From: a virus
Direction: 5' to 3' (one strand)
Virus record (IMG/VR): IMGVR_UViG_3300009514_000004
Location: 14,387-78,386 of that record
DNA: 64,000 nucleotides
Under the pieces are notes generated by a model. It was not told the DNA's origin. It saw only the letters and a list, made by a program, of their open reading frames with translations, and did not search any database. Numbering within the stretch: position 1 is the stretch's first letter; each line of letters opens with the position of its first letter. Positions 3,929-30,282 of this stretch are shown here, one piece after another. A program made the translations under genes and the position numbers.

Positions 3929-4366
3929 ATGACTACGACCATTCGCGCCAAGTTCCGCTGCATGTCCATCACCCGCACCTGGGACGGTATGGAGACCTGT
4001 ACCTTCCGACCCGTGAAGCGTGACTCCGGCCAGGACCCCGAAAACGAGATCTTCTGGAAGTACACCCCCAGCGGGTCGGCCAAGCTGACTTTCATGGGTG
4101 CGTGCGATTACCAGCCCGGGGCCTACTACTACATCGACATGACCCTCGCCGAGGACGGCGAGTGGACTCTCGACCTCGTCACCCGGCGAGGCAACGGGAG
4201 CGGCGATGTCGAGCTGGCCAGCACCTGGAAGCCGGTCACCGAAGGCGGCCTCCGGCACGGTAAGCTGGAGATGGGGATCGACTCCGCCCGGGTGATCGAC
4301 CTCTTCGGCCTCCCGGACTCCAAGTGGAACGTCGTGTTCACCTACGCTGAGGCGTCGGACGGCTGA
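3929..4366 (+). CDS. phage hypothetical protein (RAKF...EN..FWKYTPSG type)
   Basis: RBS GAAGGA; coding-like codon bias. Confidence 0.75.
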   Translation: MTTTIRAKFRCMSITRTWDGMETCTFRPVKRDSGQDPENEIFWKYTPSGSAKLTFMGACDYQPGAYYYIDMTLAEDGEWTLDLVTRRGNGSGDVELASTWKPVTEGGLRHGKLEMGIDSARVIDLFGLPDSKWNVVFTYAEASDG

Positions 4367-4575
4367 CCGCCGGCGCACTCGAGGCACACCAGGATCTCGC
4401 GCACGATCTCGTAGCCTTCCCCTCCGGGGTCGTGCGTCTCCCTCTGGGATCTGTTGTACCGCGACATGTTCGCGTCCCGGCGGGGTGGGTATCGGACGGG
4501 TCTCGTCTCGATCACCAACCTCCGGGCCGGCGTGTTAGCGGCAACAACCCTCGAACAACGCTGACATCTGTACAC
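4342..4575 (-). CDS. small Zn-ribbon protein
   Basis: CxxC at both ends; DPGGEGYEIVRE motif. Confidence 0.7.
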   Translation of the reverse strand: MYRCQRCSRVVAANTPARRLVIETRPVRYPPRRDANMSRYNRSQRETHDPGGEGYEIVREILVCLECAGGQPSDASA

Positions 4576-4681
4576 TCCGTACCAACCTCGTGGCCGACGC
4601 TACCCGGGACGGCTTACCAGGGGCGTTGTCTCCTTCGCGGAGACGCGGGTACTATACCGACTCAGCATCAAGGAGATCATC

Positions 4682-5446
4682 ATGAGTGGACAGGGCGTAC
4701 AACGACGAGGGTTCATCAAGTCCCTGTTCGCCGGTGCCGGCGCGGTCGCCGCCTGGTCGACGGTGGCCAAAGCCGCTCCGAAGCCTCAAGCGCTCGAGCG
4801 TCAAGGCAACGGCAAACCGGCCTCCAACCTCCTGCTCGCGGAGCAGGACGAGGTCTGGACTCTGGTCGACGGGTCCAAGCTCCCGGTCCGACGCATCGAG
4901 GTCCAGCTCGACTTCACCCCGGCGGTGACCTGGCAGTTCCTCCCGACCGACGAGATGCTCCGCAAGTGGGGCTACCACGTCGGACCACCGATGCTCGGCG
5001 GCCCTCCCGCCATCTACCCCGAGGACGGGGCGATGAAACGGGTCCAGCGCCGGGTGTTCGCGCGGTTCACCGAGGAGCAGCTTCGGGCCGACTACGTCGC
5101 ACAGAAGGCCGGATTCGACCCGGTCTCCACCGCGGCGCAGCTCCAGAAGGTCTCCCGAGGCGACCTGGTCAAAGCTCTCGAGGAGAAACGGGCCAAGGTC
5201 ATTGCCGAGGACAACGCGACCCCGTTCGACGAGATCCTGCGGCACCGCATGACCAACTGCTTCATCGGGTGGAAGCCGACCCGGCCCGAGGTCTACAAGA
5301 GCCACGACGAGTGGCCGGATCCTCACGGGGTATTCCTCGTGGTCCGTGGCCCGACCACCCTGTACGCCCTCGGCGTGAGTGAGTTCCCGGCGTCGTCCAA
5401 GAACATGCTCATCCAGGCGCCGGCCGCAGCGATCTTCGGTTCATGA
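4682..5446 (+). CDS. hypothetical protein with Tat-like N-terminus
   Basis: QRRGFIKSLFAGAGAVAA; RBS AAGGAG. Confidence 0.75.
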   Translation: MSGQGVQRRGFIKSLFAGAGAVAAWSTVAKAAPKPQALERQGNGKPASNLLLAEQDEVWTLVDGSKLPVRRIEVQLDFTPAVTWQFLPTDEMLRKWGYHVGPPMLGGPPAIYPEDGAMKRVQRRVFARFTEEQLRADYVAQKAGFDPVSTAAQLQKVSRGDLVKALEEKRAKVIAEDNATPFDEILRHRMTNCFIGWKPTRPEVYKSHDEWPDPHGVFLVVRGPTTLYALGVSEFPASSKNMLIQAPAAAIFGS

Positions 5447-5736
5447 GCCGCGAGAACGTCTTCCTGGTGAAGAAGTCGCCCGAGGAGCTTCGGGCGACTG
5501 TCGCCGAGTTGCTCCGGGCGATCCTGGGCAACCATGTGTCGTCGGACGCCCTCCACAGCTCTCCGTTGCGGGAGTTCACAGCCGACGATGTCTTCATCAA
5601 CGCCCACCTGGTCGATCGGGCCGGAGCGCTGCTCAACTGCCTCCTGGCGCTGGGGTACTCCCTGGACGCCAGCGAGTGGACCAGAGAGCTGCTCGACAAG
5701 ACAGACGCCTCGGCGTTGGAACGCATCACGGTCTGA
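5443..5736 (+). CDS. hypothetical protein
   Basis: ATGA overlap with the upstream gene; GC3 bias. Confidence 0.7.
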   Translation: MSRENVFLVKKSPEELRATVAELLRAILGNHVSSDALHSSPLREFTADDVFINAHLVDRAGALLNCLLALGYSLDASEWTRELLDKTDASALERITV

Positions 5737-5766
5737 TGACCCAGGTTGCTCCAAGAGCGTTTTTGA

Positions 5767-5842
5767 TCGGGGGTAGCACAACTGGCGGTGCAGCTGGCTT
5801 TGACCCAGAAGGTTGAGGGTTCGAACCCCTCCCCCCGAGCCA
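5767..5842 (+). tRNA. tRNA-Gln(TTG)
   Basis: TCGGGGG/CCCCCGA, loop CT-TTG-AC, CCA. Confidence 0.9.
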
Positions 5843-5854
5843 ATGACTGCGTCG

Positions 5855-6175
5855 TCAGGGCAGGTAATCCGGCCGGTCCACGATGACCTGGACGTAGCCT
5901 GAAGGGACAGGGCACTCGAGCTGGGTGCCATCGACGCGGATCCCGCTCTTGTACTCCCACCCGCACTCGATCGAGACGTTGCAGAAGGTGTGCAGGCATC
6001 CGTCCCACTGCCAGGAGCAGCACTTCGAGGTACCCGCCTCGTTGCACACCAGAGGGTCTCCGAGGCCCTCTGGGCGCTCTTGGACGACCGGCTTGGCCGG
6101 AAGGGTACATGGGTCCTTGCAGGCCGTCAGAGAGGCCAGAGCGAGGGTCAGGGCGATGATGGTGATGCGCAGCAT
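5855..6175 (-). CDS. Cys-rich lipoprotein
   Basis: Hydrophobic signal ending LTAC (lipobox); several further Cys. Confidence 0.75.
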   Translation of the reverse strand: MLRITIIALTLALASLTACKDPCTLPAKPVVQERPEGLGDPLVCNEAGTSKCCSWQWDGCLHTFCNVSIECGWEYKSGIRVDGTQLECPVPSGYVQVIVDRPDYLP

Positions 6176-6214
6176 GGCGGTCCTCCACAGGAGGGTCGCC
6201 TATAGCGCTCCTAC

Positions 6215-6288
6215 CGCTGCGTAGCACAACTAGGTGGTGCAGTCCCCTCATAAGGGAAAGGTTGTCGGTTCGAATCCGGCCGCAGCGA
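6215..6288 (+). tRNA. tRNA-Met/Ile2(CAT), elongator type, no encoded CCA
   Basis: CGCTGCG/CGCAGCG fully paired, loop CT-CAT-AA; lacks the initiator GGG/CCC stem. Confidence 0.85.
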
Positions 6289-6441
6289 TTTATACCGGGT
6301 AGTCCAGGTTGGGGTTAATCGGTTGTTAAAAGAAGCGGCGTGAGCCCGAGAACAGAAGAACCGGCCAGTTTTGCTGTTGCGGATGTCCTTGGGCTTTCGT
6401 TTGATCGCCGATCCGCAAAGGGCGCATGGGACGTTGGGCAT
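6289..6441 (-). pseudogene. truncated Zn-finger N-terminus of an HNH-type endonuclease
   Basis: MPNVPCALCGSAIKRKPKDIRNSKTGRFFCSRAHAASFNN, similar to the N-terminus of 2575-3111; no nuclease domain; low GC. Confidence 0.55.
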
Positions 6442-6444
6442 GTC

Positions 6445-6523
6445 TGTAGGTTAGTCGAACTTGTGGCTGTGACCAACGCCTAAGCCAGGCCTCGTTGGAG
6501 TTCGAGTCTCCCCCTTGCGACCA
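6445..6523 (+). pseudogene. degenerate tRNA-His(GTG)-like element
   Basis: TGTGG-CTGTGAC-CAACG arm, GGAG-TTCGAGT-CTCC T arm, ends ACCA; D loop deleted, acceptor poorly paired. Confidence 0.5.
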
Positions 6524-6572
6524 CTACTTCCTCTATACGTGTCGCTCAATACAGGCACCGGAGGTGATCGCC

Positions 6573-7337
6573 TTGGGGCGCAAAGAGCGATACAAGAAGC
6601 TGGCCGACAAGTTCCTGCCGACCATGAAGCGCATCTGCGCCGAAGAGGACACACCCTTCCAGGTGTGCTTCGCGCAGCTGCTGGTCGAGTCTGGAGGTCG
6701 CGGCGAGCTGGGCAAGCGGCACAACTACTTCGGGCTCAAGTACCCGAGGGGTAAGTACGCCAAGGTGCTCTGGGAGCGCCTCGGTAAGCCCGGCAAGCAC
6801 GTCAAGATGACGCCGGAGCGGCTCAAAGTCCGCGACCGCAACCATCTCGACAAGCTCCTCAAAAAGGGCGCGGTCTTCAGCGACAAGTTCATGAAGTCGC
6901 CCTACTACGGCAAGTCCGTGCGGCTCAAGATGCCCTGCGCCTTCTGCACTTTCCCGGACATGGAGGCCGGCATCCGCGCCTGGTGCATCTGGATGAAGCG
7001 GAGTCGGTACAAGGACGGCGGTATCTTCGCGACCGATCCCGTTCGCTGGATCGCCTACCGCTGGCTCCGGGGTTACGCGACCGCCAACGCTTACGTCGAA
7101 GCCGTCGTGAAACGGATGAACAGCGTGGCCAAGTACCTTGGCCTCGAGGAGTTCCGGGTCTCGATCGACGACGACCTCGACGAGCTTCTCGACGAGGCCC
7201 GTGAGCTAGGTCCTGGCCGTGACCGGTGGGACCTTGGCAAAGAGGCCCTCGAGGCCAACGGACTGACCGGTGTTCCCTACGAGGTCATCGAGTTCGAGGA
7301 GATGGAGATCGTCGTCGACCTCAACGAGGTGGGTTGA
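6573..7337 (+). CDS. GH73 glucosaminidase-like peptidoglycan hydrolase
   Basis: AQLLVESG..G.L....NYFGLKY and GYATANAY motifs; TTG start after GGAGG chosen. Confidence 0.8.
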   Translation: MGRKERYKKLADKFLPTMKRICAEEDTPFQVCFAQLLVESGGRGELGKRHNYFGLKYPRGKYAKVLWERLGKPGKHVKMTPERLKVRDRNHLDKLLKKGAVFSDKFMKSPYYGKSVRLKMPCAFCTFPDMEAGIRAWCIWMKRSRYKDGGIFATDPVRWIAYRWLRGYATANAYVEAVVKRMNSVAKYLGLEEFRVSIDDDLDELLDEARELGPGRDRWDLGKEALEANGLTGVPYEVIEFEEMEIVVDLNEVG

Positions 7338-7513
7338 TGGTCATCGCGGATTACCCTGGCGCGTACAAGCTCGAAGTCCACGGGACCAAGGTCAAGCTGG
7401 TCCTCGAGACAGAGGACCTGGAAGTCTACCAGACTTACCAGCTGGCCTCGGACCTTTACCGGGCGGGCCATCTGGCCAACCGCGCGGGCGACGACCAGTC
7501 GAAAAAGACTTAG
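7337..7513 (+). CDS. hypothetical protein
   Basis: TGATG coupling with the upstream gene. Confidence 0.65.
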   Translation: MVIADYPGAYKLEVHGTKVKLVLETEDLEVYQTYQLASDLYRAGHLANRAGDDQSKKT

Positions 7514-7537
7514 CCTGGGCTCGCACGGTGACTACCT

Positions 7538-7546
7538 GATGGGGTA
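7538..7546 (+). promoter_or_regulatory. GATGGGGTA motif (candidate phage promoter element)
   Basis: Recurs in intergenic DNA at 9212, 53009 and 57551, with a variant at 62680. Confidence 0.4.
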
Positions 7547-7606
7547 ACTGGGAACGACGCTCGTTGACAACCAGGTCGAAGAAACGGTCCTTTCGGGGAC
7601 CTTTGA

Positions 7607-7682
7607 CGCAGGGTGGAGAAGTGGTCATCTCGCTAGGCTCATAACCTGGAGACCGGAGGTTCGAATCCTCCTCCTGCTACCA
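7607..7682 (+). tRNA. initiator tRNA-fMet(CAT)
   Basis: C1xU72 mismatch, fMet-like D arm TGGAGAAGTGGTCATCTCG, CT-CAT-AA, CCA. Confidence 0.88.
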
Positions 7683-7686
7683 ACAT

Positions 7687-8056
7687 GGGGACGAACTGGT
7701 TTAGACGTGGGTGTCGGAGCCAGGACTGCGTGTCCCGGAGTCAGCGGACCGGGTCAGAAACTGCTGAAACCTTTAAGCGCCAACGACAACGTTTTCGCTC
7801 CTCTCGCACAAGCTGCGTGAGGCGGTCCGCTCGGAGCCTGCTCACGGCGCCGGGTCACGACTGTCATACAATGTGAGCTGGCCGTAGGGATCCAGGTGGG
7901 AGCCTGACCCTCGGTGAGAGCCCGAGAGGGTAACTCCCCGGCACCGTCGAGGTGGGCCGCTTGTGCTCGACGGTGGTGTATGAACGAGCGGGACTACACA
8001 CGTAGACGTTCTGAGCGAAGTTCTCGCGGACTCGGGTTCGACTCCCGACGTCTCCA
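7687..8056 (+). ncRNA. ssrA: tmRNA; tag (A)ANDNVFAPLAQAA at 7779-7820
   Basis: GGGGACG/CGTCTCC-A acceptor with G3.U70, T arm TCGGG-TTCGACT-CCCGA, 370 nt, tag ORF ending AA-stop; CCA not encoded. Confidence 0.95.
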
Positions 8057-8069
8057 AAAGACATGGGCT

Positions 8070-8150
8070 TTGGCTGGTGTGACGTTACGGCTACTTCAAC
8101 CTGTTAAGTTGTTTCTGTACAACCGTGGCACCCTTTCTCAGCCATTCCCA
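8070..8150 (+). ncRNA. Y-RNA-like element B displaying an Asn(GUU) anticodon loop
   Basis: TGGCTG/CAGCCA, GTTACGG/CCGTGGC, CAAC-CTGTTAA-GTTG; homologous to 11582-11660. Confidence 0.7.
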
Positions 8151-8229
8151 CACCTTAGAGGGTCGAGAAGCAGGTGACGAGGGGAGACGGAAGAGAGCTT
8201 CCTAGAACGACCCCTGACCCTCCTTTCAC

Positions 8230-8303
8230 GCGGGCGTAGCTCAACGGTAGAGCACTGGGTTTCCACCCCAGGTATGTCGGTTCGATTCCGTCTGCCCGCT
8301 CCA
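8230..8303 (+). tRNA. tRNA-Gly(TCC)
   Basis: GCGGGCG/TGCCCGC, loop TT-TCC-AC, CCA. Confidence 0.93.
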
Positions 8304-8326
8304 TTCGACCTGGGTACGGTGGCCTC

Positions 8327-8593
8327 ATGGCCTCCCGAGAAGTCCACTGCGCCGACTGCGTCGCCGAGCTGGGTGAGCCCTTTGGGCACGTCCACGACTG
8401 GCTTGACGCGTTCTACCCCGAGCTGGGTCACGACCACCGGCCCGAGCGTCACCACGACGAGGGCGTCGAAGAGGTCCGACGCATGTGGGGTGACCAGGCA
8501 GCTCAGGCCGCCGAGATCCACATCAAGCGCGACTACTACGGCGAGATCCCGACCAAGGACCAGGCCGATCTCTGGAAGCTCCTGATGAGCTAG
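8327..8593 (+). CDS. hypothetical protein
   Basis: GC3-biased ORF; CxxC near the N-terminus. Confidence 0.7.
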   Translation: MASREVHCADCVAELGEPFGHVHDWLDAFYPELGHDHRPERHHDEGVEEVRRMWGDQAAQAAEIHIKRDYYGEIPTKDQADLWKLLMS

Positions 8594-9090
8594 TCGTCTT
8601 CGCGCCGGGACAGCATCATCCTGTCCAGCCGGTCCCAGGCGTCCAGGAGAGCTTGACCCAGGGCGACGACCAGGTCGTCGTGGCTGTGGACGATCATCTG
8701 GCTGCCGGTGTCGCCGATCACGGTCCACCGGCCGGTGAACATCTCGGGCGTGTGCCTGCTCGAGATGGATCCGCGTCGGACGATCGAGAACTGGGCGTAG
8801 GGCGTCGCGTCGGTGAGCAGGTCGAGGAAGACCATGGCCATCCCCGAACCGCCGAGGTCCGGCAACGGCTTGTGCTCTTCCGGGTCGACCTCGATGCCGA
8901 TGCCCGACCCACGGAAGAAGGCGAAAAAGGTCCCCTCGGGCCGGATCTGGACGATGGTGAGCCTGTGCTCGTTCCAGCGCACAGACATCCCCTCCAACCA
9001 GCGCCAGCGCCGGTGACCCAACAGCTCGAGGGCGAGAGCTTCTTCATTCAAGAGATGCCAGCGGGGGCTGTGGGACCTGGGGGGGTCCAT
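8590..9090 (-). CDS. hypothetical protein
   Basis: Convergent ORF with 4-nt stop overlap. Confidence 0.65.
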   Translation of the reverse strand: MDPPRSHSPRWHLLNEEALALELLGHRRWRWLEGMSVRWNEHRLTIVQIRPEGTFFAFFRGSGIGIEVDPEEHKPLPDLGGSGMAMVFLDLLTDATPYAQFSIVRRGSISSRHTPEMFTGRWTVIGDTGSQMIVHSHDDLVVALGQALLDAWDRLDRMMLSRREDD

Positions 9091-9119
9091 TTACTCACCG
9101 GCATCTATAGGCACAACAA

Positions 9120-9196
9120 CGGGGTGTAGCTCAGTCTGGTGGAGCGCTGCGTTCGGGACGCAGAGGCCGCTGGTTCGAATCCAGTCACCCCGACCA
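9120..9196 (+). tRNA. tRNA-Pro(CGG)
   Basis: CGGGGTG/CACCCCG, loop TT-CGG-GA, CCA. Confidence 0.95.
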
Positions 9197-9320
9197 ACAC
9201 CGACTCGATACGATGGGGTACTGTACCAACAGGCGTGCCCAACGGAGCTGCGGCACCCTGGCCAGGGATAAGCGCCTCGAAGGCTAGTCGCAGCTCCTCA
9301 ACGACCTCCTGGACCTCGAC

Positions 9321-10124
9321 ATGATCATCGGACTCACCGGCGCCGCTCGATCCGGCAAGGACACCGTGGCGGACATGCTGCTCCTGCACTGGGTCTTGGG
9401 CAACAACGGCAAAACGATCGCCCGGTGGCTCGAGATCGCGCAGGAAGACCGCAAGGTCAAGTCCAACTGGGCCCGACGTATCCAGGTGGCCGGCCCTCTC
9501 AAGCAGTTTTGCCGAGAGGTCTTCGACTGGACCGAGGAACACACCGACGGCGACCTCAAAGACTCCGAGGACAAGCGTTACAAGCGCAACTGTGGCCGGT
9601 GCGTCGACGGCCAACAGGTGGCCAAGCCGATCGCGGTCGGCAACGATCAAATACGGAACCCCTGCAACGAGATGGGGCCCTGCTCTCACTGCGGCGGGCG
9701 GGGGTTCACCTTCCTCAAGCCGAGGGAGGCGATGCAGCGCCTGGGCTACGACTGGTCGTTCCCGCTGTACCCGACCATCTGGGCAGACAAGGCAGCTCGT
9801 ACGGCCAAAGCGTTCTCCGACGACCCTATCGCGCACCCGGCGCGCAGTACCCCCAAGGAGCGGTTGGCGATCGTGACCGACTGCCGGTTCATCGCCGACA
9901 TCAAGGCGGTGGCCGACGTCGGGGGCATCGTCATCCAGGTTCACCGTGACCACGAGGGTCTGACCGGGGCCGCGGCACAACACCACGGTGAGACGGTGCG
10001 GGACACGCCCGAATTCCAGGCGATCGTCCACCACCACATCTATAACGACGGGACGCTCGACGACCTCAACGACAAGGTCAAGGCGCTCGTAGGCGCACTC
10101 AAGAAGGAGGCCGGCATGAGGTGA
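9321..10124 (+). CDS. deoxynucleoside monophosphate kinase
   Basis: IIGLTGAARSGKDT, A.PLK, PRE.MQRLG and IVTDCRF..D motifs. Confidence 0.88.
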   Translation: MIIGLTGAARSGKDTVADMLLLHWVLGNNGKTIARWLEIAQEDRKVKSNWARRIQVAGPLKQFCREVFDWTEEHTDGDLKDSEDKRYKRNCGRCVDGQQVAKPIAVGNDQIRNPCNEMGPCSHCGGRGFTFLKPREAMQRLGYDWSFPLYPTIWADKAARTAKAFSDDPIAHPARSTPKERLAIVTDCRFIADIKAVADVGGIVIQVHRDHEGLTGAAAQHHGETVRDTPEFQAIVHHHIYNDGTLDDLNDKVKALVGALKKEAGMR

Positions 10125-10142
10125 ACTACCAAGGAGTTCCCC

Positions 10143-10370
10143 ATGTCCCGATCCTTCAAGAAGACCCCCGGCTGGTGTGACCGATCTCCGTTCGCCAAGC
10201 GTCAGGCGAACAAGCGCGTCCGGAAGTACAAGGGCGACGTCTCCAACGGCCGCTCGTACAAGAAGCTCTACTGCTCCTGGAACATCTGTGACTTCCGGTT
10301 CCTCCGCAAGGATGCCCGGTGGCGCAAGTACCCGCAGCGGCAGCCCGACTACAAGGCGCGCATGAAGTAA
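10143..10370 (+). CDS. small basic phage protein (MSRSFKK...NGRSYKKLYCSWNICDF)
   Basis: RBS AAGGAG; stop directly abuts tRNA-Val. Confidence 0.8.
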   Translation: MSRSFKKTPGWCDRSPFAKRQANKRVRKYKGDVSNGRSYKKLYCSWNICDFRFLRKDARWRKYPQRQPDYKARMK

Positions 10371-10442
10371 GGGCCCATAGCTTAATGGGAAAGCGCCGCT
10401 TTGACGTAGCGGAGAGACCTGGTTCGATCCCAGGTGGGCCCA
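10371..10442 (+). tRNA. tRNA-Val(GAC), no encoded CCA
   Basis: GGGCCCA/TGGGCCC, loop TT-GAC-GT. Confidence 0.88.
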
Positions 10443-10593
10443 CTGGCGCCGGGGAGGCCTTAACCCGGATGAACTGCGGACCTCCGAGAAACGCAGCGAG
10501 ATCGTGAACAACGGAACCAGCGGCCACAAGGGCCGCACCTGTTGCCGAGCAGGGCTGGCGGTCTAAGAAGGCGCAGCGCAAGTCGGCACCCAA

Positions 10594-10670
10594 CGGGATG
10601 TAGCTCAGTCTGGTGGAGCGCTTGTCTGGGGGACAAGAGGCCGCAGGTTCGAATCCTGTCATCCCGACCA
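10594..10670 (+). tRNA. tRNA-Pro(GGG)
   Basis: CGGGATG/CATCCCG, loop CT-GGG-GG, CCA. Confidence 0.95.
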
Positions 10671-10707
10671 ACTTGCTTAGTTCGAGACCCGCTCTCGTAG
10701 CTAGGCT

Positions 10708-10811
10708 GACAGCGAGTCCTTCTGACCCAACAGGGTAGCCCAGATCGGTCGGTGCCCGTGGATCGTATCATCGACCGGCAAGTACGGGGTCCACCAGCGG
10801 GGCTCGCTGTC
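10708..10811 (+). ncRNA. candidate pseudoknotted RNA module
   Basis: 12-bp closing helix 10708-19/10800-11; helix 10746-54/10769-77 whose loop complements 10783-94. Confidence 0.5.
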
Positions 10812-10816
10812 TACAC

Positions 10817-10881
10817 GGTGCCGTAGCTCAAAGGTAGAGCAGGCCGAGAGGTCAGACCCCGGTTCGAGTCCGGGCGGTACA
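10817..10881 (+). ncRNA. anticodon-less tRNA mimic (anticodon loop replaced by a GAGA tetraloop)
   Basis: Canonical TAGCTCAAAGGTAGAGCA D arm and CCCGG-TTCGAGT-CCGGG T arm, 6-bp acceptor, GGCC-GAGA-GGTC arm, no CCA. Confidence 0.7.
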
Positions 10882-10885
10882 AGGA

Positions 10886-10957
10886 GCAGGTGGCCCGTCG
10901 ACAGACGGACGGCAAGGAGCCATGGATCCGACCCGCGAGTCCTAGACGGCCATCTGC
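10886..10957 (+). ncRNA. candidate small RNA, 13-bp terminal stem with one bulged C
   Basis: GCAGGTGG(C)CCGTC / GACGGCCATCTGC; inner GGAC/GTCC and GGC-AAGGA-GCC. Confidence 0.45.
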
Positions 10958-10990
10958 AACGTTCCTATACCACAACGACGGGAGGTAGCT

Positions 10991-11575
10991 GTGAGCGACC
11001 CCATGTACGAAGCGGGGTTCCTCGCAGTGACCCCGGAGTTGAGGCAGGCGGTTCTCGAGGGGACCCCCTGGATAGACAGGACCGAGGCCCGGCGTGAGTG
11101 TTTCATGTCCGACGGCGGAGGCCTGTCCTACACCTACGGCAAGGGCAGAGGCGTGCGCACGTACACCTCGATCCCCTACACGTCAGTCGTTCGCGACGTG
11201 CTCGAGTTCGTCAACGGCCTGGTCTTCGCGTGCGGGTGGGCAGCCATGAACGGCTGTTTCCTCAACCGCTACGACCACGACCGGATGCACCTCGGGTGGC
11301 ACGCCGACGACTTCCGCAAGATGGACCACGCGGCTCCGGTCGTCGTGGTCAGCTTCGGCGAGGAGCGCGAGATCTGGTGGCGCAGGGTCGGAGAGCGAGG
11401 GATCACCCCGCCCGATCAGCGTCAGCTCCTGGCCGAGGGGAGCGTCTTCGTGATGCCCCCAGGCTTCCAGCACTCCCACGAGCACCGCATCCCCAAGGGA
11501 GACCGCTCGATGGGTCCGAGGGTCTCGATGACCTTCCGTCGGTTCCTCCCGCAGGGGGAAGAGCCGATAGCGTAA
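10991..11575 (+). CDS. alkB: AlkB-family 2OG-Fe(II) dioxygenase
   Basis: N.Y......LGWHADD, SFGEER, H.IPK and RVSMTFR motifs. Confidence 0.9.
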   Translation: MSDPMYEAGFLAVTPELRQAVLEGTPWIDRTEARRECFMSDGGGLSYTYGKGRGVRTYTSIPYTSVVRDVLEFVNGLVFACGWAAMNGCFLNRYDHDRMHLGWHADDFRKMDHAAPVVVVSFGEEREIWWRRVGERGITPPDQRQLLAEGSVFVMPPGFQHSHEHRIPKGDRSMGPRVSMTFRRFLPQGEEPIA

Positions 11576-11581
11576 ACCGGG

Positions 11582-11660
11582 TTGGCTGGTGCGACTTACG
11601 GGTTACTTCACACTTGCACTGTGGTTTTCCATAACCTGTGAGGCTTTTCTCAGCCTTCCC
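11582..11660 (+). ncRNA. Y-RNA-like element A displaying an Ala(UGC) anticodon loop
   Basis: GGCTG/CAGCC, 10-bp TTACGGGTTA/TAACCTGTGA, CACA-CTTGCAC-TGTG; about 40 nt upstream of ro60. Confidence 0.72.
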
Positions 11661-11698
11661 ATCCACTCGTACTGATTCTCTCCTACGGAGGTGTGACC

Positions 11699-13408
11699 AT
11701 GAGCTTCATCAACCCAACTGCGTCCAGCGTCGTCAAGAGCGTTACCGACCCCAAGAACCAGCCCGTGATCGCCACGCCCGACAAGGCCGCCGGCGAGCAC
11801 CTCAACTGGATGGGCGGCATCAGCTTCGACATCAACGACCCGCTGCTCCGGCTCCAGGTGGCCGCGTCGAGCTGCTTCTTCGGCGAGCCGATGTACTACC
11901 ACAAGGACTCGGGCGACAAGCGACCCAAGCGGGTTACCGCACCGCAGCGTCGCGCGCGACTCAACGCCGCCCAGCTCACGAAGCTCCGGGACACCCTGGG
12001 GGCGGTCGATCCGGCCGAGTGGCGATCTCTGACGCCGGCCGACCTCATGGTCAAGGCCATCGACGAGGCCCTGGCGCACGACCCGGAGAAGACCCTCGAG
12101 TTCGCGGCCTTCCTGCGGCAGACGCTGCACATCCGGACGACCCCGCAGGTCATCATGGTCCGCGCGGCGCTCCTGGACAGCGTCAAGGGCACAGGGCTCA
12201 TCACCAAGTACGCAACGGCCATCATCGGCCGGCTCGACGAGGTGACGGTCCAGTACGCCTACTTCCTGTCCCTCGGCAAGGGCAAGACCCCGCCGAAGAA
12301 CCTGAAGCGCAACTGGGCCCGCGCCATCCAGCGTGCCAACGAGTACCAGCTCGCGAAGTACCGGATGGAGGGTCGCTCGGTGAACCTCTACGACGTCGTC
12401 AACATCAGCCACCCGAAGGGGCCCCTGATCGACAAGCTCATGAAGGGCAAGCTGAAGCTCGGCGGTGACGGCCGAAAGACCTGGGAGTCCATCCGCTCCG
12501 GCGGCGGCTCCTGGACCGAGGCCGCGGCGGTCATGGGCCACATGGCTCTGCTGAGGAACCTCCGCAACCTGTCGGAGAACGACGCCCTGACCAAGGAGCT
12601 GTGCGACAAGCTCGTCGCCGGCGCCGCCAAGGGCAAGCAGCTCCCGTTCCGGTACTTCAGCGCCTTCAAGGCTCTGGAGGGCAAGGCCAAGAGCGGGCTG
12701 GTGTTCGACGCCATCGAGGCCGCGCTCGAGGCTTCCATCGGGAACCTCCCGCGCTTCTCGGGCCGCGTGTGCTCCCTGGTCGACAACTCGGGCTCCGCCT
12801 GGGGGACGACCACGTCCTCGATGGGGTCCATGCACATGGCTTCCATCGGGAACCTCATGGGGGTCCTGACGGGCAAGGCTTCCGACGAGGGTCACATCGG
12901 CATCTTCGGTGACCACCTCAAGATGCGGCCGGTCCGCAAGAAGGAGTCGACCTTCGACGCCCTCAAGGCCATCGACCAGATCGGCCGCAACGAGGTCGGA
13001 GGGGCTACCGAGCACGGCGTGTGGCTGTTCTGGCGCGACGCCATCAAGCAGCGCCAGCACTGGGACACCGTGTTCGTCTACAGCGACATGCAGGCCGGTC
13101 ACGGCGGGCTCTACGGCAACAAGCCGGGTGAGTACGCTGACTACCTGTGGGGCGATGACGGGTACGCCCGGTACATCGACGTCGCCAAGCTGGTCAAGAC
13201 GTACCGCGAGAAGGTCAACCCGAAGGTGAACGTCTTCCTCGTCCAGATCGCCGGGTACCAGGACACCCTGATTCCCGAGTTCTACGACAGGACGTACATC
13301 CTCGGCGGCTGGTCCGACCAGCTGCTGCGCTTCGCGGCGCAGATGATCGCCATGACCGAGCAGGCACCGACGGCACAGCCTCCCTCCCAGGAGCCGTCGG
13401 CAACCTGA
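11699..13408 (+). CDS. rsr: Ro60/TROVE-vWA RNA-binding protein
   Basis: TROVE-like helical region (A..LR....IRT.PQ, ALLRNLRNL, LPFRYFSA) plus vWA VDNSGS and VFVYSDMQ. Confidence 0.9.
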   Translation: MSFINPTASSVVKSVTDPKNQPVIATPDKAAGEHLNWMGGISFDINDPLLRLQVAASSCFFGEPMYYHKDSGDKRPKRVTAPQRRARLNAAQLTKLRDTLGAVDPAEWRSLTPADLMVKAIDEALAHDPEKTLEFAAFLRQTLHIRTTPQVIMVRAALLDSVKGTGLITKYATAIIGRLDEVTVQYAYFLSLGKGKTPPKNLKRNWARAIQRANEYQLAKYRMEGRSVNLYDVVNISHPKGPLIDKLMKGKLKLGGDGRKTWESIRSGGGSWTEAAAVMGHMALLRNLRNLSENDALTKELCDKLVAGAAKGKQLPFRYFSAFKALEGKAKSGLVFDAIEAALEASIGNLPRFSGRVCSLVDNSGSAWGTTTSSMGSMHMASIGNLMGVLTGKASDEGHIGIFGDHLKMRPVRKKESTFDALKAIDQIGRNEVGGATEHGVWLFWRDAIKQRQHWDTVFVYSDMQAGHGGLYGNKPGEYADYLWGDDGYARYIDVAKLVKTYREKVNPKVNVFLVQIAGYQDTLIPEFYDRTYILGGWSDQLLRFAAQMIAMTEQAPTAQPPSQEPSAT

Positions 13409-13414
13409 CTCTCC

Positions 13415-13455
13415 GGTAGGGGGCTCCCATCCGCACCTGGGTGGGGGCTTCCTGC
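13415..13455 (+). terminator. long GC hairpin after ro60
   Basis: GGTAGG...CCCATCC-GCACCT-GGGTGGG...CCTGCC; no U tract. Confidence 0.4.
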
Positions 13456-13493
13456 CACCCCTCTCGGTAGAAAGGCTATGGATCCGGGTAGAC

Positions 13494-13886
13494 ATGAGCA
13501 TTCCAACCTGGGCACCTCCTGGCCATTTCAACTACAACGTCTACGGCGACCCCGTGGCTATCGCCCACATCAAGGGGTGGGCTGCGGCGGAGAACGTCAC
13601 CCCCCACGAAGGTGGGGACGATGACACCGAGACCTTCTTCGGGGGATTCTTCACCGAAGCGGAGATCGAGCGCCTCCGGCGCGTTGCCGGCGACACGGTC
13701 GAGGAGGCTCATTTCCTGGGCCTCCGCACCGACGACGTCGAGACCTACCGGGCCTGGCTCAAAGGCCAGGACATCCCGGTGGTCCACGAGGTCCTCGAGC
13801 AACCCGAGGGCTTCTTCAACGCCTACTACCGCCCGGACGACATCGAGACGATCTCGACCGGGTACCTGGGCACTCCGCCTCTGTAG
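13494..13886 (+). CDS. acidic hypothetical protein
   Basis: GC3 bias; stop codon is the TAG at positions 8-10 of tRNA-Thr. Confidence 0.75.
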   Translation: MSIPTWAPPGHFNYNVYGDPVAIAHIKGWAAAENVTPHEGGDDDTETFFGGFFTEAEIERLRRVAGDTVEEAHFLGLRTDDVETYRAWLKGQDIPVVHEVLEQPEGFFNAYYRPDDIETISTGYLGTPPL

Positions 13887-13950
13887 CTCAACGGTAGAGC
13901 CCCGGCCTTGTAAGCCGGTGATGTCGGTTCGAACCCGACCGGGGGCTCCA
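13877..13950 (+). tRNA. tRNA-Thr(TGT)
   Basis: GCCTCTG/CGGGGGC, loop CT-TGT-AA, CCA. Confidence 0.92.
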
Positions 13951-13955
13951 GATCC

Positions 13956-14192
13956 TCAGCTGAGGATTCCCTTCACCGTGCGGAGTCGGTAACCGTCGGC
14001 TACCAGATGGCCGAGCTGGTCGACGAGCTTGTCGACCGTGTCGGTGGGGAGCGGGGAGTGCGACTTGTCGGACAGGTCGCGGAAGTGGAAGCCGAGATCG
14101 GACGCGTAGTCCTGATCGCAGGCCCAGATACAGACGGCGCGGCCGTCTGGGAGAGCGAGGCCTTTGCAGCCACACTCGAAGCGGACGAACAT
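13956..14192 (-). CDS. hypothetical protein
   Basis: AAGGAGGA RBS before ATG 14192. Confidence 0.7.
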   Translation of the reverse strand: MFVRFECGCKGLALPDGRAVCIWACDQDYASDLGFHFRDLSDKSHSPLPTDTVDKLVDQLGHLVADGYRLRTVKGILS

Positions 14193-14345
14193 GCGTCCTC
14201 CTTGGGTTGAGGTTTCGTCCTCTGACCTCTCTACGAGGTCGCCCCCGAGAATCAGCAAGCCTCGTGCCATCTCTAAGTCCGCGAACCCAGGTGATCCCCA
14301 CCTGGTCGACCGCAAGAAATCCTGCGGTCCTGTAAGAGATCTTAC

Positions 14346-14419
14346 GCCTGTGTAGCTCAACGGTAGAGCAGCCGCCTCGTAAGCGACCGATGAGGGTTCG
14401 ACTCCCTCCGCAGGCTCCA
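14346..14419 (+). tRNA. tRNA-Thr(CGT)
   Basis: GCCTGTG/CGCAGGC, loop CT-CGT-AA, CCA. Confidence 0.92.
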
Positions 14420-14422
14420 GAT

Positions 14423-14497
14423 GCCGGTATAGCACAACGGCCAGTGCACCGCCGTGGTAAGGCGGGGATCCGGGTTCAACTCCCGGTGCCGGCTCCA
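14423..14497 (+). tRNA. tRNA-Thr(GGT)
   Basis: GCCGGTA/TGCCGGC, loop GT-GGT-AA (unusual G32), CCA. Confidence 0.9.
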
Positions 14498-14502
14498 CCT
14501 TC

Positions 14503-14581
14503 GTCCCTGTCGTCTAGTCAGGCCCAGGACACCAGGCTCTCAACCTGGAGACGGCGAGTTCAAATCTCCCCAGGGACGCCA
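14503..14581 (+). tRNA. tRNA-Glu(CTC)
   Basis: GTCCCTG/CAGGGAC, loop CT-CTC-AA, GCCA. Confidence 0.92.
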
Positions 14582-14605
14582 GATCTTCTATAGGCCTTCC
14601 TCTGT

Positions 14606-14788
14606 ATGGAATCCTTCCCCGACTACAACGCCTGGCTCACCGTCGCGTGCATCCTCTGGATCGCCATCCTGGTCCTCCTGCTGCACGTCACAGCCCGATG
14701 GGTGTTCGGTGACCAGGAGGCCCCACCCAAGCCCAAGAAGACCCCAAAGAGGCCCCCTGGGGCCCCTCACAAGACTGTGCTCTCGTAG
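14606..14788 (+). CDS. small single-pass membrane protein
   Basis: One TM helix then a Pro/Lys tail; stop lies inside tRNA-Arg(CCG). Confidence 0.6.
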   Translation: MESFPDYNAWLTVACILWIAILVLLLHVTARWVFGDQEAPPKPKKTPKRPPGAPHKTVLS

Positions 14789-14853
14789 TTCAACGGATAG
14801 AACGCAGGTCTCCGGAACCTGAGATAGAGGTTCGATTCCTCTCGGGAGTACCA
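14779..14853 (+). tRNA. tRNA-Arg(CCG)
   Basis: GCTCTCG/CGGGAGT, loop CT-CCG-GA, CCA; near-paralog of Arg(GCG). Confidence 0.93.
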
Positions 14854-14891
14854 TCCGCTCTAGCGGCCCCATCGTCGTGTTCCTACAATGT

Positions 14892-14967
14892 GCGTCCGTG
14901 GTCTAACTGGAAAGGCGCTCGGCTTCTAACCGGGAAGATGGGGGTTCGACTCCTCCCGGACGCGCCA
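14892..14967 (+). tRNA. tRNA-Arg(TCT)
   Basis: GCGTCCG/CGGACGC, loop CT-TCT-AA, CCA. Confidence 0.93.
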
Positions 14968-28907: not shown

Positions 28908-29043
28908 GGTCACCTCCGCTCTAACTACGCTATGGGCGGCGAAACTAAGCAGGTGAGAAAATTTGCTTACTGGGGCTGGTAATCGCGTAGGTAGAGCGAA
29001 CCATCGTAGCTCAGCCCTTGGGGCGTAGCTCAGAAGGAGCAGT

Positions 29044-30282
29044 ATGAACATCAAAGCGCTTGCCGCCGCAACTCCGGTCGTCTGTGCCGAATGCGGTCAC
29101 GAGGCCCACTACCTACCGAACCACCTGCTCGAGGAGCACGGCCTCTCCCAGAAGGAGTACGAGGCCAAGCACCCGGGCTCGCCTTCCATGTCCAAGGAGT
29201 TCGAGAAAGAGTTCCTCAAGGGCGTCAAGAAGGCGGACCAAATCGCCGCGCCCCCGCCGGAGGCTCTGAGCATCAAGTTCGGCGGCGTCCGGTTCCCTGT
29301 GAACCCCGACGTCCCGGAAGCCGACTGCCTTCCCATGCCGGACCACTACATGACGCCCCAGCATGGGCAGCTGTCCACCGACATCCACCACGCGTGCGTG
29401 TCACTCCGTAAGGGTCGGCACACCCTTATCTGGGGGCTCCCGGGCTCGGGCAAGGACGCCTGTCTGTCGGCTCTGTCGGCGGTCACACGACGCCCGGCCG
29501 GGCTGTTCAACATCAAGCCCGGCGTCGACATCCAGAGCTGGTTCTACAGCCGGTCCTTCGACAAGGAGGGGACTTCCTGGGAAGAGGGCAAGCTCCTCAA
29601 GATGCTCAGGGACGGGTACACGACGCGCACCGGGCGCCGCATCCCTTTCATGGTCGTCATCTCCGACCTCGACCGCGCGGACCTCGCGCAGGCCGAGCAC
29701 CTCCGCCTCATCCTCGACTCCATCCAGGGTCGGGTCGAGGGGCCTGGTGGTGAGGTCTCCCCGATTTTCCCGGGGACCATCATCGCGGCGACGGCCAACT
29801 CCATCGGCGCCGGCGACGTCCGCGGGCGCTGCATCTCGGCCAATCCCATCGACGCCTCCATCCTGGACCGGTTCGAGCGCAAGTTCGAGTTCGCCATGAT
29901 GGACTGGAAAGACGAGGGGAAGATCGCCCGCGCGAAGTTCCCGCTTCTGGTCGAGAACTGCCCGGGCATCTTCGACCCGGTCGGCAAGGGCACTGACGCC
30001 ATGCGTCAGGCCGTCGCCAACGGGCAGGTGTTCACGGAGTTCAGCCACCGCGCCGTCTGCGCCTGGCTGGGACACGCCCAGGACATCATCGAGGTCACGG
30101 GTGCCAAGCCCAAGAACCTCCTCAAAAAGGCCGCCAAGTGCGTGCTCGACGGTCTCCCGGACCAGATCACCAAAGAGAAGGTCAAGAAGATCCTCGACCC
30201 GTGCCTCAAGGGGGGCATCCTCGAGGAGGGTGACACCTCGTTCATCAAGACCGGCAAGCAGAAGCTCGCCGCGGGCTGGTAG
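29044..30282 (+). CDS. CobS/MoxR-like AAA+ ATPase with N-terminal Zn finger
   Basis: GLPGSGKD, ATANSIGAG and NPIDASILDRF; N-terminal CAEC...H....HG..EY. Confidence 0.88.
   Translation: MNIKALAAATPVVCAECGHEAHYLPNHLLEEHGLSQKEYEAKHPGSPSMSKEFEKEFLKGVKKADQIAAPPPEALSIKFGGVRFPVNPDVPEADCLPMPDHYMTPQHGQLSTDIHHACVSLRKGRHTLIWGLPGSGKDACLSALSAVTRRPAGLFNIKPGVDIQSWFYSRSFDKEGTSWEEGKLLKMLRDGYTTRTGRRIPFMVVISDLDRADLAQAEHLRLILDSIQGRVEGPGGEVSPIFPGTIIAATANSIGAGDVRGRCISANPIDASILDRFERKFEFAMMDWKDEGKIARAKFPLLVENCPGIFDPVGKGTDAMRQAVANGQVFTEFSHRAVCAWLGHAQDIIEVTGAKPKNLLKKAAKCVLDGLPDQITKEKVKKILDPCLKGGILEEGDTSFIKTGKQKLAAGW

Follow-up and report, generated by a model that had tools for sequence, protein, structure and literature searches.

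What is a gene with the body of a tRNA, and a closed hairpin in place of its anticodon loop, doing upstream of ro60 in a phage genome? Large phages very often carry tRNA genes, which are usually interpreted as spares that serve codon supply or counter host defences. The gene considered here (10817–10882, plus strand) lies in the window, a stretch of 64,000 nucleotides within a 138-kb IMG/VR virus fragment (about 26% complete by CheckV) from a high-GC large phage. The fragment carries 41 tRNA genes and a tmRNA gene in an island of about 19 kb (window −4016 to 14967), with the tmRNA 2.8 kb upstream of the element. No tRNA genes for Leu, Ser, Tyr or Trp were found in the 138-kb fragment.

The element is built as a tRNA in all of its parts save one. 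Its acceptor strands (10817–10823 and 10875–10881) form 6 pairs, including U3–A70 and G4·U69, and end in a G1·A72 mismatch. U8–A9 (10824–10825) leads into a D arm with a 4-bp stem (GCTC/AAAGGTA/GAGC; 10826–10840), which is followed by A26 (10841); on the 3′ side, a 4-nt variable region, AGAC (10854–10857), precedes a T arm with a 5-bp stem (CCCGG/TTCGAGT/CCGGG; 10858–10874). The elbow nucleotides (U8, A14, G18G19, T54-T55-C56 and A58) are intact, and the acceptor and T stems stack to 12 layers, made up of 11 pairs and the terminal G·A mismatch; positions 15 and 48 are A·C, which is not a Levitt pair. The usual anticodon arm of 17 nt, with a 5-bp stem and a 7-nt loop, is replaced by a 12-nt stub (GGCC-GAGA-GGTC; 10842–10853), in which a 4-bp stem is capped by a GAGA loop. 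Because its anticodon arm is reduced to this stub, the element cannot read a codon. An earlier note on the locus, made from the letters alone, had described canonical D and T arms, U8–A9 and a GNRA-capped stub in the anticodon position. The arms and U8–A9 are borne out by the sequence, by the Rfam tRNA model and by folding, and the stub is present as described, with the correction that one of its pairs is G·U and the other three are Watson–Crick. The discriminator A (10882) is followed by GGAG, hence no CCA is encoded; this absence, like the mismatch at 1:72, had been noticed correctly. The acceptor helix cannot extend beyond 10817/10881 because C10816 and A10882 cannot pair. In an alternative register, the terminal G·A can be read as G−1/A73, which leaves a 6-bp helix with the G·U as its third pair.

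Covariance and folding analyses agree with this assignment. The Rfam tRNA model (RF00005) scored the element at 40.2 bits against a gathering threshold of 29 (E 1e-6 in a 1.35-kb scan), and in the anticodon arm the alignment passed over 11 positions of the model but 6 of the sequence. The element was not listed in a scan of the whole window at the gathering threshold, and ARAGORN made no call of any kind at this site, where a tRNA with an undetermined anticodon had been expected. The cloverleaf is the minimum-free-energy fold and accounts for 59% of the ensemble (z = −3.0; 0/200 shuffles fold as well). It is unchanged when the element is folded in a 271-nt context, where it stands between two independently folding modules. 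In a structural scan of the 138-kb record, the element was the only short-armed unit among 42 tRNA-shaped genes. These results confirm that 10817–10882 is a real tRNA-shaped element without an anticodon loop. Its missing CCA is meaningful, since 37 of the 41 tRNA genes in the record encode one. The CCA-less tRNA genes are those for tRNA-Asp, tRNA-Lys, tRNA-Met (window 6215–6288) and tRNA-Val (window 10371–10443).

The surrounding genes all lie on the plus strand. The tRNA-Val(GAC) gene (10371–10443) is followed by a structured spacer of 150 nt (10444–10593) and by tRNA-Pro(GGG) (10594–10670; called by ARAGORN, Rfam 66.1 bits, CCA encoded), the last decoding tRNA before the element. Next is a second structured spacer (10675–10811), which folds into a hairpin (10675–10706) and module A (10708–10811); the latter, 104 nt long, is closed by a helix of about 13 bp containing AGCGAG/CUCGCU, and ends 5 nt before the predicted RNase P site. 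About 3 nt past the discriminator, module B (10885–10958) begins and folds as a long stem with a bulged C. It is succeeded by a gene for an AlkB-like 2OG-Fe(II) oxygenase (10991–11575; PF13532, E 7e-15), by a Y-RNA-like gene (11582–11660) whose fold has a Ro60-docking stem and an anticodon-arm-like tip and no T or D arms, and by the Ro60 (TROVE) gene (11699–13408). The Pfam TROVE match of the latter is weak (20.6 bits); its product is 39.6% identical to gp540 of Bacillus phage G and has 2535 homologues at E ≤ 1e-30, most of which, among the matches listed, carry the TROVE domain. The distance from the element to the start of ro60 at 11699 is 817 nt, so the site had been placed accurately at some 0.8 kb upstream of ro60 between two structured modules. 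Several island genes sit immediately behind tRNAs. No sigma-70-like promoter was found in 9000–13600, and no plus-strand terminator-like site between 9041 and 13600; the lone such site in 9000–13600 (9023–9040) lies upstream of the element block, and the number of sites is no higher than in shuffled sequences.

Two minor features of this interval are recorded here. An AAGGAG box (10881–10886) is separated by 3 nt from a GTG-started ORF of 32 codons (10890–10988), which overlaps module B and stops 2 nt short of the alkB-like start; it could encode a leader peptide or be due to chance. The word (A/C)GCGAG occurs in all three structured spacers near the element (10444–10593, 10708–10811 and 10885–10958), at about 10493, 10712 and 10935, and again in the closing helix of a YrlA-type RNA in the phage contig L070, described below. 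It may be a common protein-binding word or a chance repetition.

The reading that we tentatively favour, and to which we give somewhat less than an even chance, is that the element, a tRNA unit with no decoding function, is a substrate of RNase P and RNase Z, whose cuts would release the structured RNA upstream and generate the 5′ end of the alkB-like/ro60 message. By this scheme tRNA-Val, tRNA-Pro, module A, the element, module B, the alkB-like gene, the Y-like RNA and ro60 would be transcribed together. RNase P, cleaving at 10816/10817, would give the structured RNA upstream its 3′ end. A cut of the RNase Z type just past the discriminator (10881/10882) would set the 5′ end of the RNA that carries module B, the alkB-like gene and ro60; once this 3′ cut is made, the alkB-like message would have module B as its 5′ leader. 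RNase Z is inhibited by an encoded CCA, and without one an endonucleolytic cut right after the discriminator is allowed. Since the element encodes no CCA, an RNase Z-type cut would be permitted there. The excised RNA of 66 nt, probably CCA-tailed, may persist as a stable tRNA mimic. Transcription, both cleavages, and the stability and any role of the excised product are inferred. What the sequence retains is consistent with such a fate: the element keeps the features read by RNase P, RNase Z and the CCA-adding enzyme, namely the acceptor/T stack and the elbow, and is without those read by the ribosome and by most synthetases. As it has no anticodon, G3·U70, long variable arm or G−1:C73, no aminoacylation is predicted in the standard register. 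The idea of punctuation also fits the absent CCA, the tRNA-punctuated island and the tight packing between structured RNAs, the element lying on the strand and with the spacing of the island, 5 nt past module A and about 3 nt before module B. Against it, the G1·A72 mismatch, the C at −1 and A15·C48 make the element a slightly sub-optimal tRNA-like substrate, and a neat stub can also result when a duplicated tRNA gene suffers one internal deletion.

Both tRNA-like processing signals and tRNA mimics are known kinds, and several bear comparison with the element. Plant mitochondrial t-elements are non-decoding tRNA-like structures in longer transcripts, at which cuts by RNase P and RNase Z make the ends of neighbouring RNAs; C/A residues may be added to a t-element once it is excised (Forner et al. 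2007, PMC1920247). Together with the M. smegmatis YrlA RNA described below, they are the precedents for the processing proposed here. They are irregular cloverleaves in a different genetic system, whereas the phage element has a near-perfect tRNA body and a designed-looking stub. The vertebrate mascRNA and MEN-beta units (RF01684) share its reduced anticodon arm, and processing of the mascRNA unit by RNase P and RNase Z frees the flanking RNA; their context, however, is that of a vertebrate nuclear lncRNA, and with 16.5 bits against a gathering threshold of 42.5 the element is related to this family by analogy only. In the tmRNA tRNA-like domain, an acceptor/T module likewise dispenses with an anticodon arm, but tmRNA has G3·U70, an mRNA-like domain, no D stem and, in this phage, an encoded CCA. 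Canonical elongator tRNAs (RF00005) have the same acceptor, D and T arms and tertiary-contact nucleotides, and the element scores above the gathering threshold of their model; it departs from them in having no anticodon arm with a 5-bp stem and 7-nt loop, no CCA and a mismatch at 1:72.

A comparison of phage contigs and metagenomes revealed that the element is not alone. Like other units, it lies in a phage tRNA region on the same strand, keeps the acceptor, D and T arms intact and has its anticodon loop replaced by a closed hairpin. A first scan of IMG/VR required a GNRA loop and thus has no bearing on whether GNRA marks the class. A second, loop-agnostic scan, based on D-arm and T-loop words at a shortened distance from one another, returned at least 119 stretches. 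From the matches listed, 61 distinct units with a good acceptor and T stem were taken for a test of stub closure. A closed stub of at least 4 bp was present in 22 of these 61 units, compared with 8.5 ± 2.5 in shuffled sequences (maximum 17 in 1000); in another 21 of the 61, likewise among the matches listed, the hairpin was wholly absent. Many short-arm units lie within tRNA arrays, on the strand of the array. Loops are diverse: of the 21 that have four bases in the loop-agnostic sample, among the matches listed, a single one was GNRA, so the GNRA cap is not a hallmark of the class and is one solution of several. A search of the literature on anticodon-less tRNA-like RNAs of phages found no specific description. 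The element belongs to a recurring, apparently undescribed class of non-decoding phage tRNA look-alikes. New here are a clean single-copy case in an RNA-quality-control block, a second case linked to Ro60, and an orthologous pair with compensatory change.

The second Ro60-linked case is in L009, a phage-like contig whose Ro60 is 59% identical to that of the window. Its unit (L009:2209–2276) combines D and T arms and an acceptor stem of 7 bp with the stub CCGC-GAAA-GCGG; it scores 47.6 bits with the Rfam tRNA model and is passed over by ARAGORN. Downstream of it, a YrlA-type RNA follows after about 70 nt and ro60 after 1.7 kb. The GNRA swap that the earlier note had thought worth seeking in related phages is thus found in L009, although it is rare in the loop-agnostic sample. 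The L009 stub is identical to the top four anticodon-stem pairs (CCGC/GCGG) of a tRNA-Ala(UGC) gene in the same contig (L009:3025–3097), with GAAA replacing the lower stem and the loop, and the unit retains G3·U70 and A73. On these grounds it looks to be derived from that tRNA-Ala, and since the stub matches the top of the contig's own tRNA-Ala anticodon stem, such stubs can arise from a tRNA copy. AlaRS could in principle charge the L009 unit without an anticodon.

The orthologous pair comes from L035 and L039, which are homologous phage regions with the same order of tRNA-Trp, a short-armed unit, tRNA-Met and tRNA-Ser, and with flanking tRNAs that are about 90% identical. The stub reads CCC-GGUGA-GGG in one and GGCC-GGAA-GGUU in the other, staying closed through compensatory changes, and the acceptor stems differ at several positions, again with compensation. 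The pair has inherited and kept the anticodon-less state.

No orthologue of the window's own element was recovered. Locus searches of IMG/VR based on Ro60 and on the AlkB-like protein yielded only distant relatives, and neither two metagenome pattern scans, of which the second returned only an unrelated look-alike (L186), nor blastn against a phage database detected one. The nearest Ro60 homologues are 59–63% identical, and the collections searched held no close phage relative; AlkB-like relatives in L069–L071 have 37–55% identity. L070, a 618-kb contig (record G010, 92% complete), has tRNA-Pro(CGG), tRNA-Pro(GGG) and an alkB-like gene in the order of the window. In the interval after tRNA-Pro(GGG), where the window has module A and the element, L070 carries a YrlA-type RNA and then two real tRNA-Leu genes, so that the nearest syntenic relative speaks against a punctuating role for the element. 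AGCGAG/CUCGCU is found in the closing helices of both module A and the L070 YrlA-type RNA, and blastn of modules A and B against the RNAs of relatives detected no homology. Elsewhere in L070, at 4493–4563, ARAGORN calls a 71-nt tRNA-Ile(AAT) for which the Rfam tRNA model is silent at E ≤ 0.1; a stem of 5 bp closed by a loop of 5 nt is an alternative reading of its anticodon arm.

The missing orthologue bears on whether the element is simply a decaying tRNA duplicate, a neutral remnant from which a private internal deletion removed the anticodon loop. Such an origin is a serious rival, although in our judgement a fairly unlikely one. It would account for the absence of a CCA that 37 of the 41 real tRNAs encode, for the G1·A72 mismatch and the A15·C48 pair, and for the solitary occurrence of the element among 42 tRNA-shaped genes, and the L009 stub illustrates how simply a tRNA anticodon stem can give rise to one. 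Yet none of the four helices is broken, the elbow nucleotides are preserved, and most of the ensemble adopts the cloverleaf. No clear parent could be found among the 24 tRNAs of the window, the best agreeing at 51 of 66 positions, most of them universal ones; with no parent recognisable in the record, the element is not a recent copy. The earlier note had argued from the clean tetraloop against random decay. Private decay is indeed made less likely by the recurrence of the design in L009 and L035/L039, by its maintenance between the latter two and by closed stubs above chance, while the failure to find an orthologue counts in favour of decay. The same comparative data raise a further explanation, that the excised RNA is a stable decoy or sponge which occupies a factor reading the elbow or acceptor of tRNAs, such as a defence, modification or CCA-adding enzyme, and is immune to anticodon-loop nucleases. 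Units in the dense tRNA arrays of L035, L039 and L064 need no punctuation, and the class therefore probably has another or an additional role. Their persistence where punctuation is redundant, the free variation of acceptor stems with compensation, as for selection on shape only, and the heavy investment of this phage in 41 tRNAs and a tmRNA are what a decoy would lead one to expect. We nevertheless regard it as unlikely to be the main function of this element, which is present in a single copy and for which no candidate partner was identified; no gene for a peptidyl-tRNA hydrolase or a CCA-adding enzyme was found in the 138-kb fragment, itself about 26% complete.

Proximity to ro60 calls for the element to be set against the Ro60/Y-RNA system, of which it might be a component, either by remaining attached to module A, the two forming a Y RNA of two domains, or by acting in trans as the tRNA-like effector domain that the Y-like RNAs lack. 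YrlA RNAs are arranged as T arm, closed acceptor stem-loop and D arm, with the Ro60-docking stem in the position of the anticodon stem; in M. smegmatis, YrlA undergoes RNase P cleavage and receives a CCA tail (Chen et al. 2014, PMC4201824). Like YrlA/Yrn1 (PMC4201824; Wang et al. 2018, bioRxiv 10.1101/312249; RF02553), the element mimics a tRNA body, has no usable anticodon and lies near a Ro60 gene, here 817 nt upstream of it on the same strand. The Ro60-linked relatives all have sub-threshold YrlA matches (37–42 bits) upstream of ro60, whose tRNA-like domain has no counterpart of this kind in the window; a YrlA-type RNA occupies the syntenic place in L070, and in L009 an element of the same kind is found about 70 nt from one. 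The Y-RNA-like gene at 11582–11660 shares the docking-stem words CUGGUG.GA, GGGUUACUUC and UUCUCAG with the L009 YrlA-type RNAs, and has no Rfam YrlA match. However, in the element itself the stub stands between the D arm and the T arm, the acceptor stem is open and a Ro60-docking stem (GNCGAA-type 5′ strand) is absent, and no match to RF02553 was found in 10400–11750 at E ≤ 10; it is not a YrlA RNA, and the YrlA-like role once suggested for it does not follow. Yrn1 of D. radiodurans does have the order D, short arm, T, but its acceptor-position helix runs into the Ro60 site, whereas that of the element stops after 7 layers and its flanks fold separately.

The wider survey gives the class little to do with Ro60. 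Among ten virus records reached via look-alike loci, nine are without Ro60, six of these being at least 92% complete; the exception, G001 (the L035 phage), has ro60 at a distance of 38 kb from its element, and the record of L070 itself holds no such element. A TROVE gene was found in the flanks of 2 of about 170 pattern-derived loci. Most carriers being without Ro60, a general linkage was rejected: the Ro60 link of the class is weak, and the class is not Ro60-dependent. For the window's element we consider membership of the Ro60 system improbable. A bolder version would have the tRNA mimicry of YrlA split between molecules, with the docking Y-like RNAs showing an anticodon-arm look-alike and the free element supplying elbow and acceptor, so that together they would display all tRNA surfaces to host enzymes or defences, or recruit an effector to the Ro60 particle in trans; sealed-anticodon bodies would then be a functional class of RNA, undescribed so far, that phages and some bacteria share and that has its own dedicated partner. 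This we regard as a long shot, and the presence in L009 of both full YrlA-type RNAs and a free element argues against strict complementarity with Y-like RNAs. The YrlA-type RNA of L070 (L070:2507–2650; 37 bits with Rfam YrlA) has a T arm, a closed acceptor loop and a D arm, and searches of this huge-phage contig with the TROVE profile and with the window's Ro60 protein both failed to find a Ro60 gene. A last explanation takes the element for an anticodon-less acceptor that, once processed, can be charged by a synthetase that needs no anticodon, and that donates its residue outside normal decoding. Its G·U pair is third in a 6-bp helix when the G−1/A73 register is adopted, and G3·U70 occurs in L009, L186 and several other members, most of them with A73. 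The standard register has G4·U69 and U3–A70 instead, no CCA is encoded, and G3·U70 is present in just 6 of 80 class members, about the share expected from tRNA-Ala, so that alanine identity was rejected as a class feature and charging of the element appears very improbable.

Processing by RNase P and RNase Z thus remains the reading that we prefer for this locus. Non-decoding tRNA bodies that recur as a conserved class would mean that the tRNA shape itself has been put to other use, possibly as a handle for processing, by which long phage transcripts are organised, or as a mimic addressed to tRNA-reading proteins. Standard tRNA finders miss sealed-anticodon units or would label them pseudogenes. 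The RNA-centred block of the window, with the element, Y-like RNAs, an AlkB-like oxygenase and Ro60, is a small system in which the links between tRNA mimicry, processing by RNase P/Z and Ro60 particles could be studied.

Several further observations were made in the course of the searches. A covariance model of short-arm units (R1) failed to tell these apart from ordinary tRNAs, and neither the window nor the Ro60-linked loci yielded another member with it; at window 29019–29071, far from the tRNA island, the short-arm tRNA model gives a weak match of 19 bits that is probably due to chance. Additional units that match the Rfam tRNA model at 33–46 bits and on which ARAGORN is silent occur in Ro60-linked phage contigs (L009:1021–1089, 1114–1198 and 1756–1828; L010:2848–2933; L002:3598–3667), one of them with a shortened T arm. 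The GNRA-constrained pattern was also found in bacterial and MAG contigs, none of which has a Ro60 gene near the unit, and the stub covaries within Acidovorax and within an Enterovirga group. Eight Acidovorax loci (L191, L200, L208, L221, L222, L228, L245 and L250) share a conserved unit with a D arm, a GNRA-capped 4-bp stub (CCCC/GGGG, ACCC/GGGT or CTCC/GGAG) and a T arm; its flanks form no standard 7-bp acceptor stem in the expected register, and the unit may be a tRNA-like module within a larger RNA. Two unrelated short-armed look-alikes adjoin tmRNA genes, in L186 (38–103; tmRNA 185–552) and in L210 (about 4400–4970). The L186 unit has the stub ACC-GAGA-GGU, a D arm identical to that of the window's element and G3·U70, and is convergent with the tmRNA gene. 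In the Enterovirga group, a G3·U70 unit with a GNRA-capped, covarying stub lies beside a permuted tmRNA gene.
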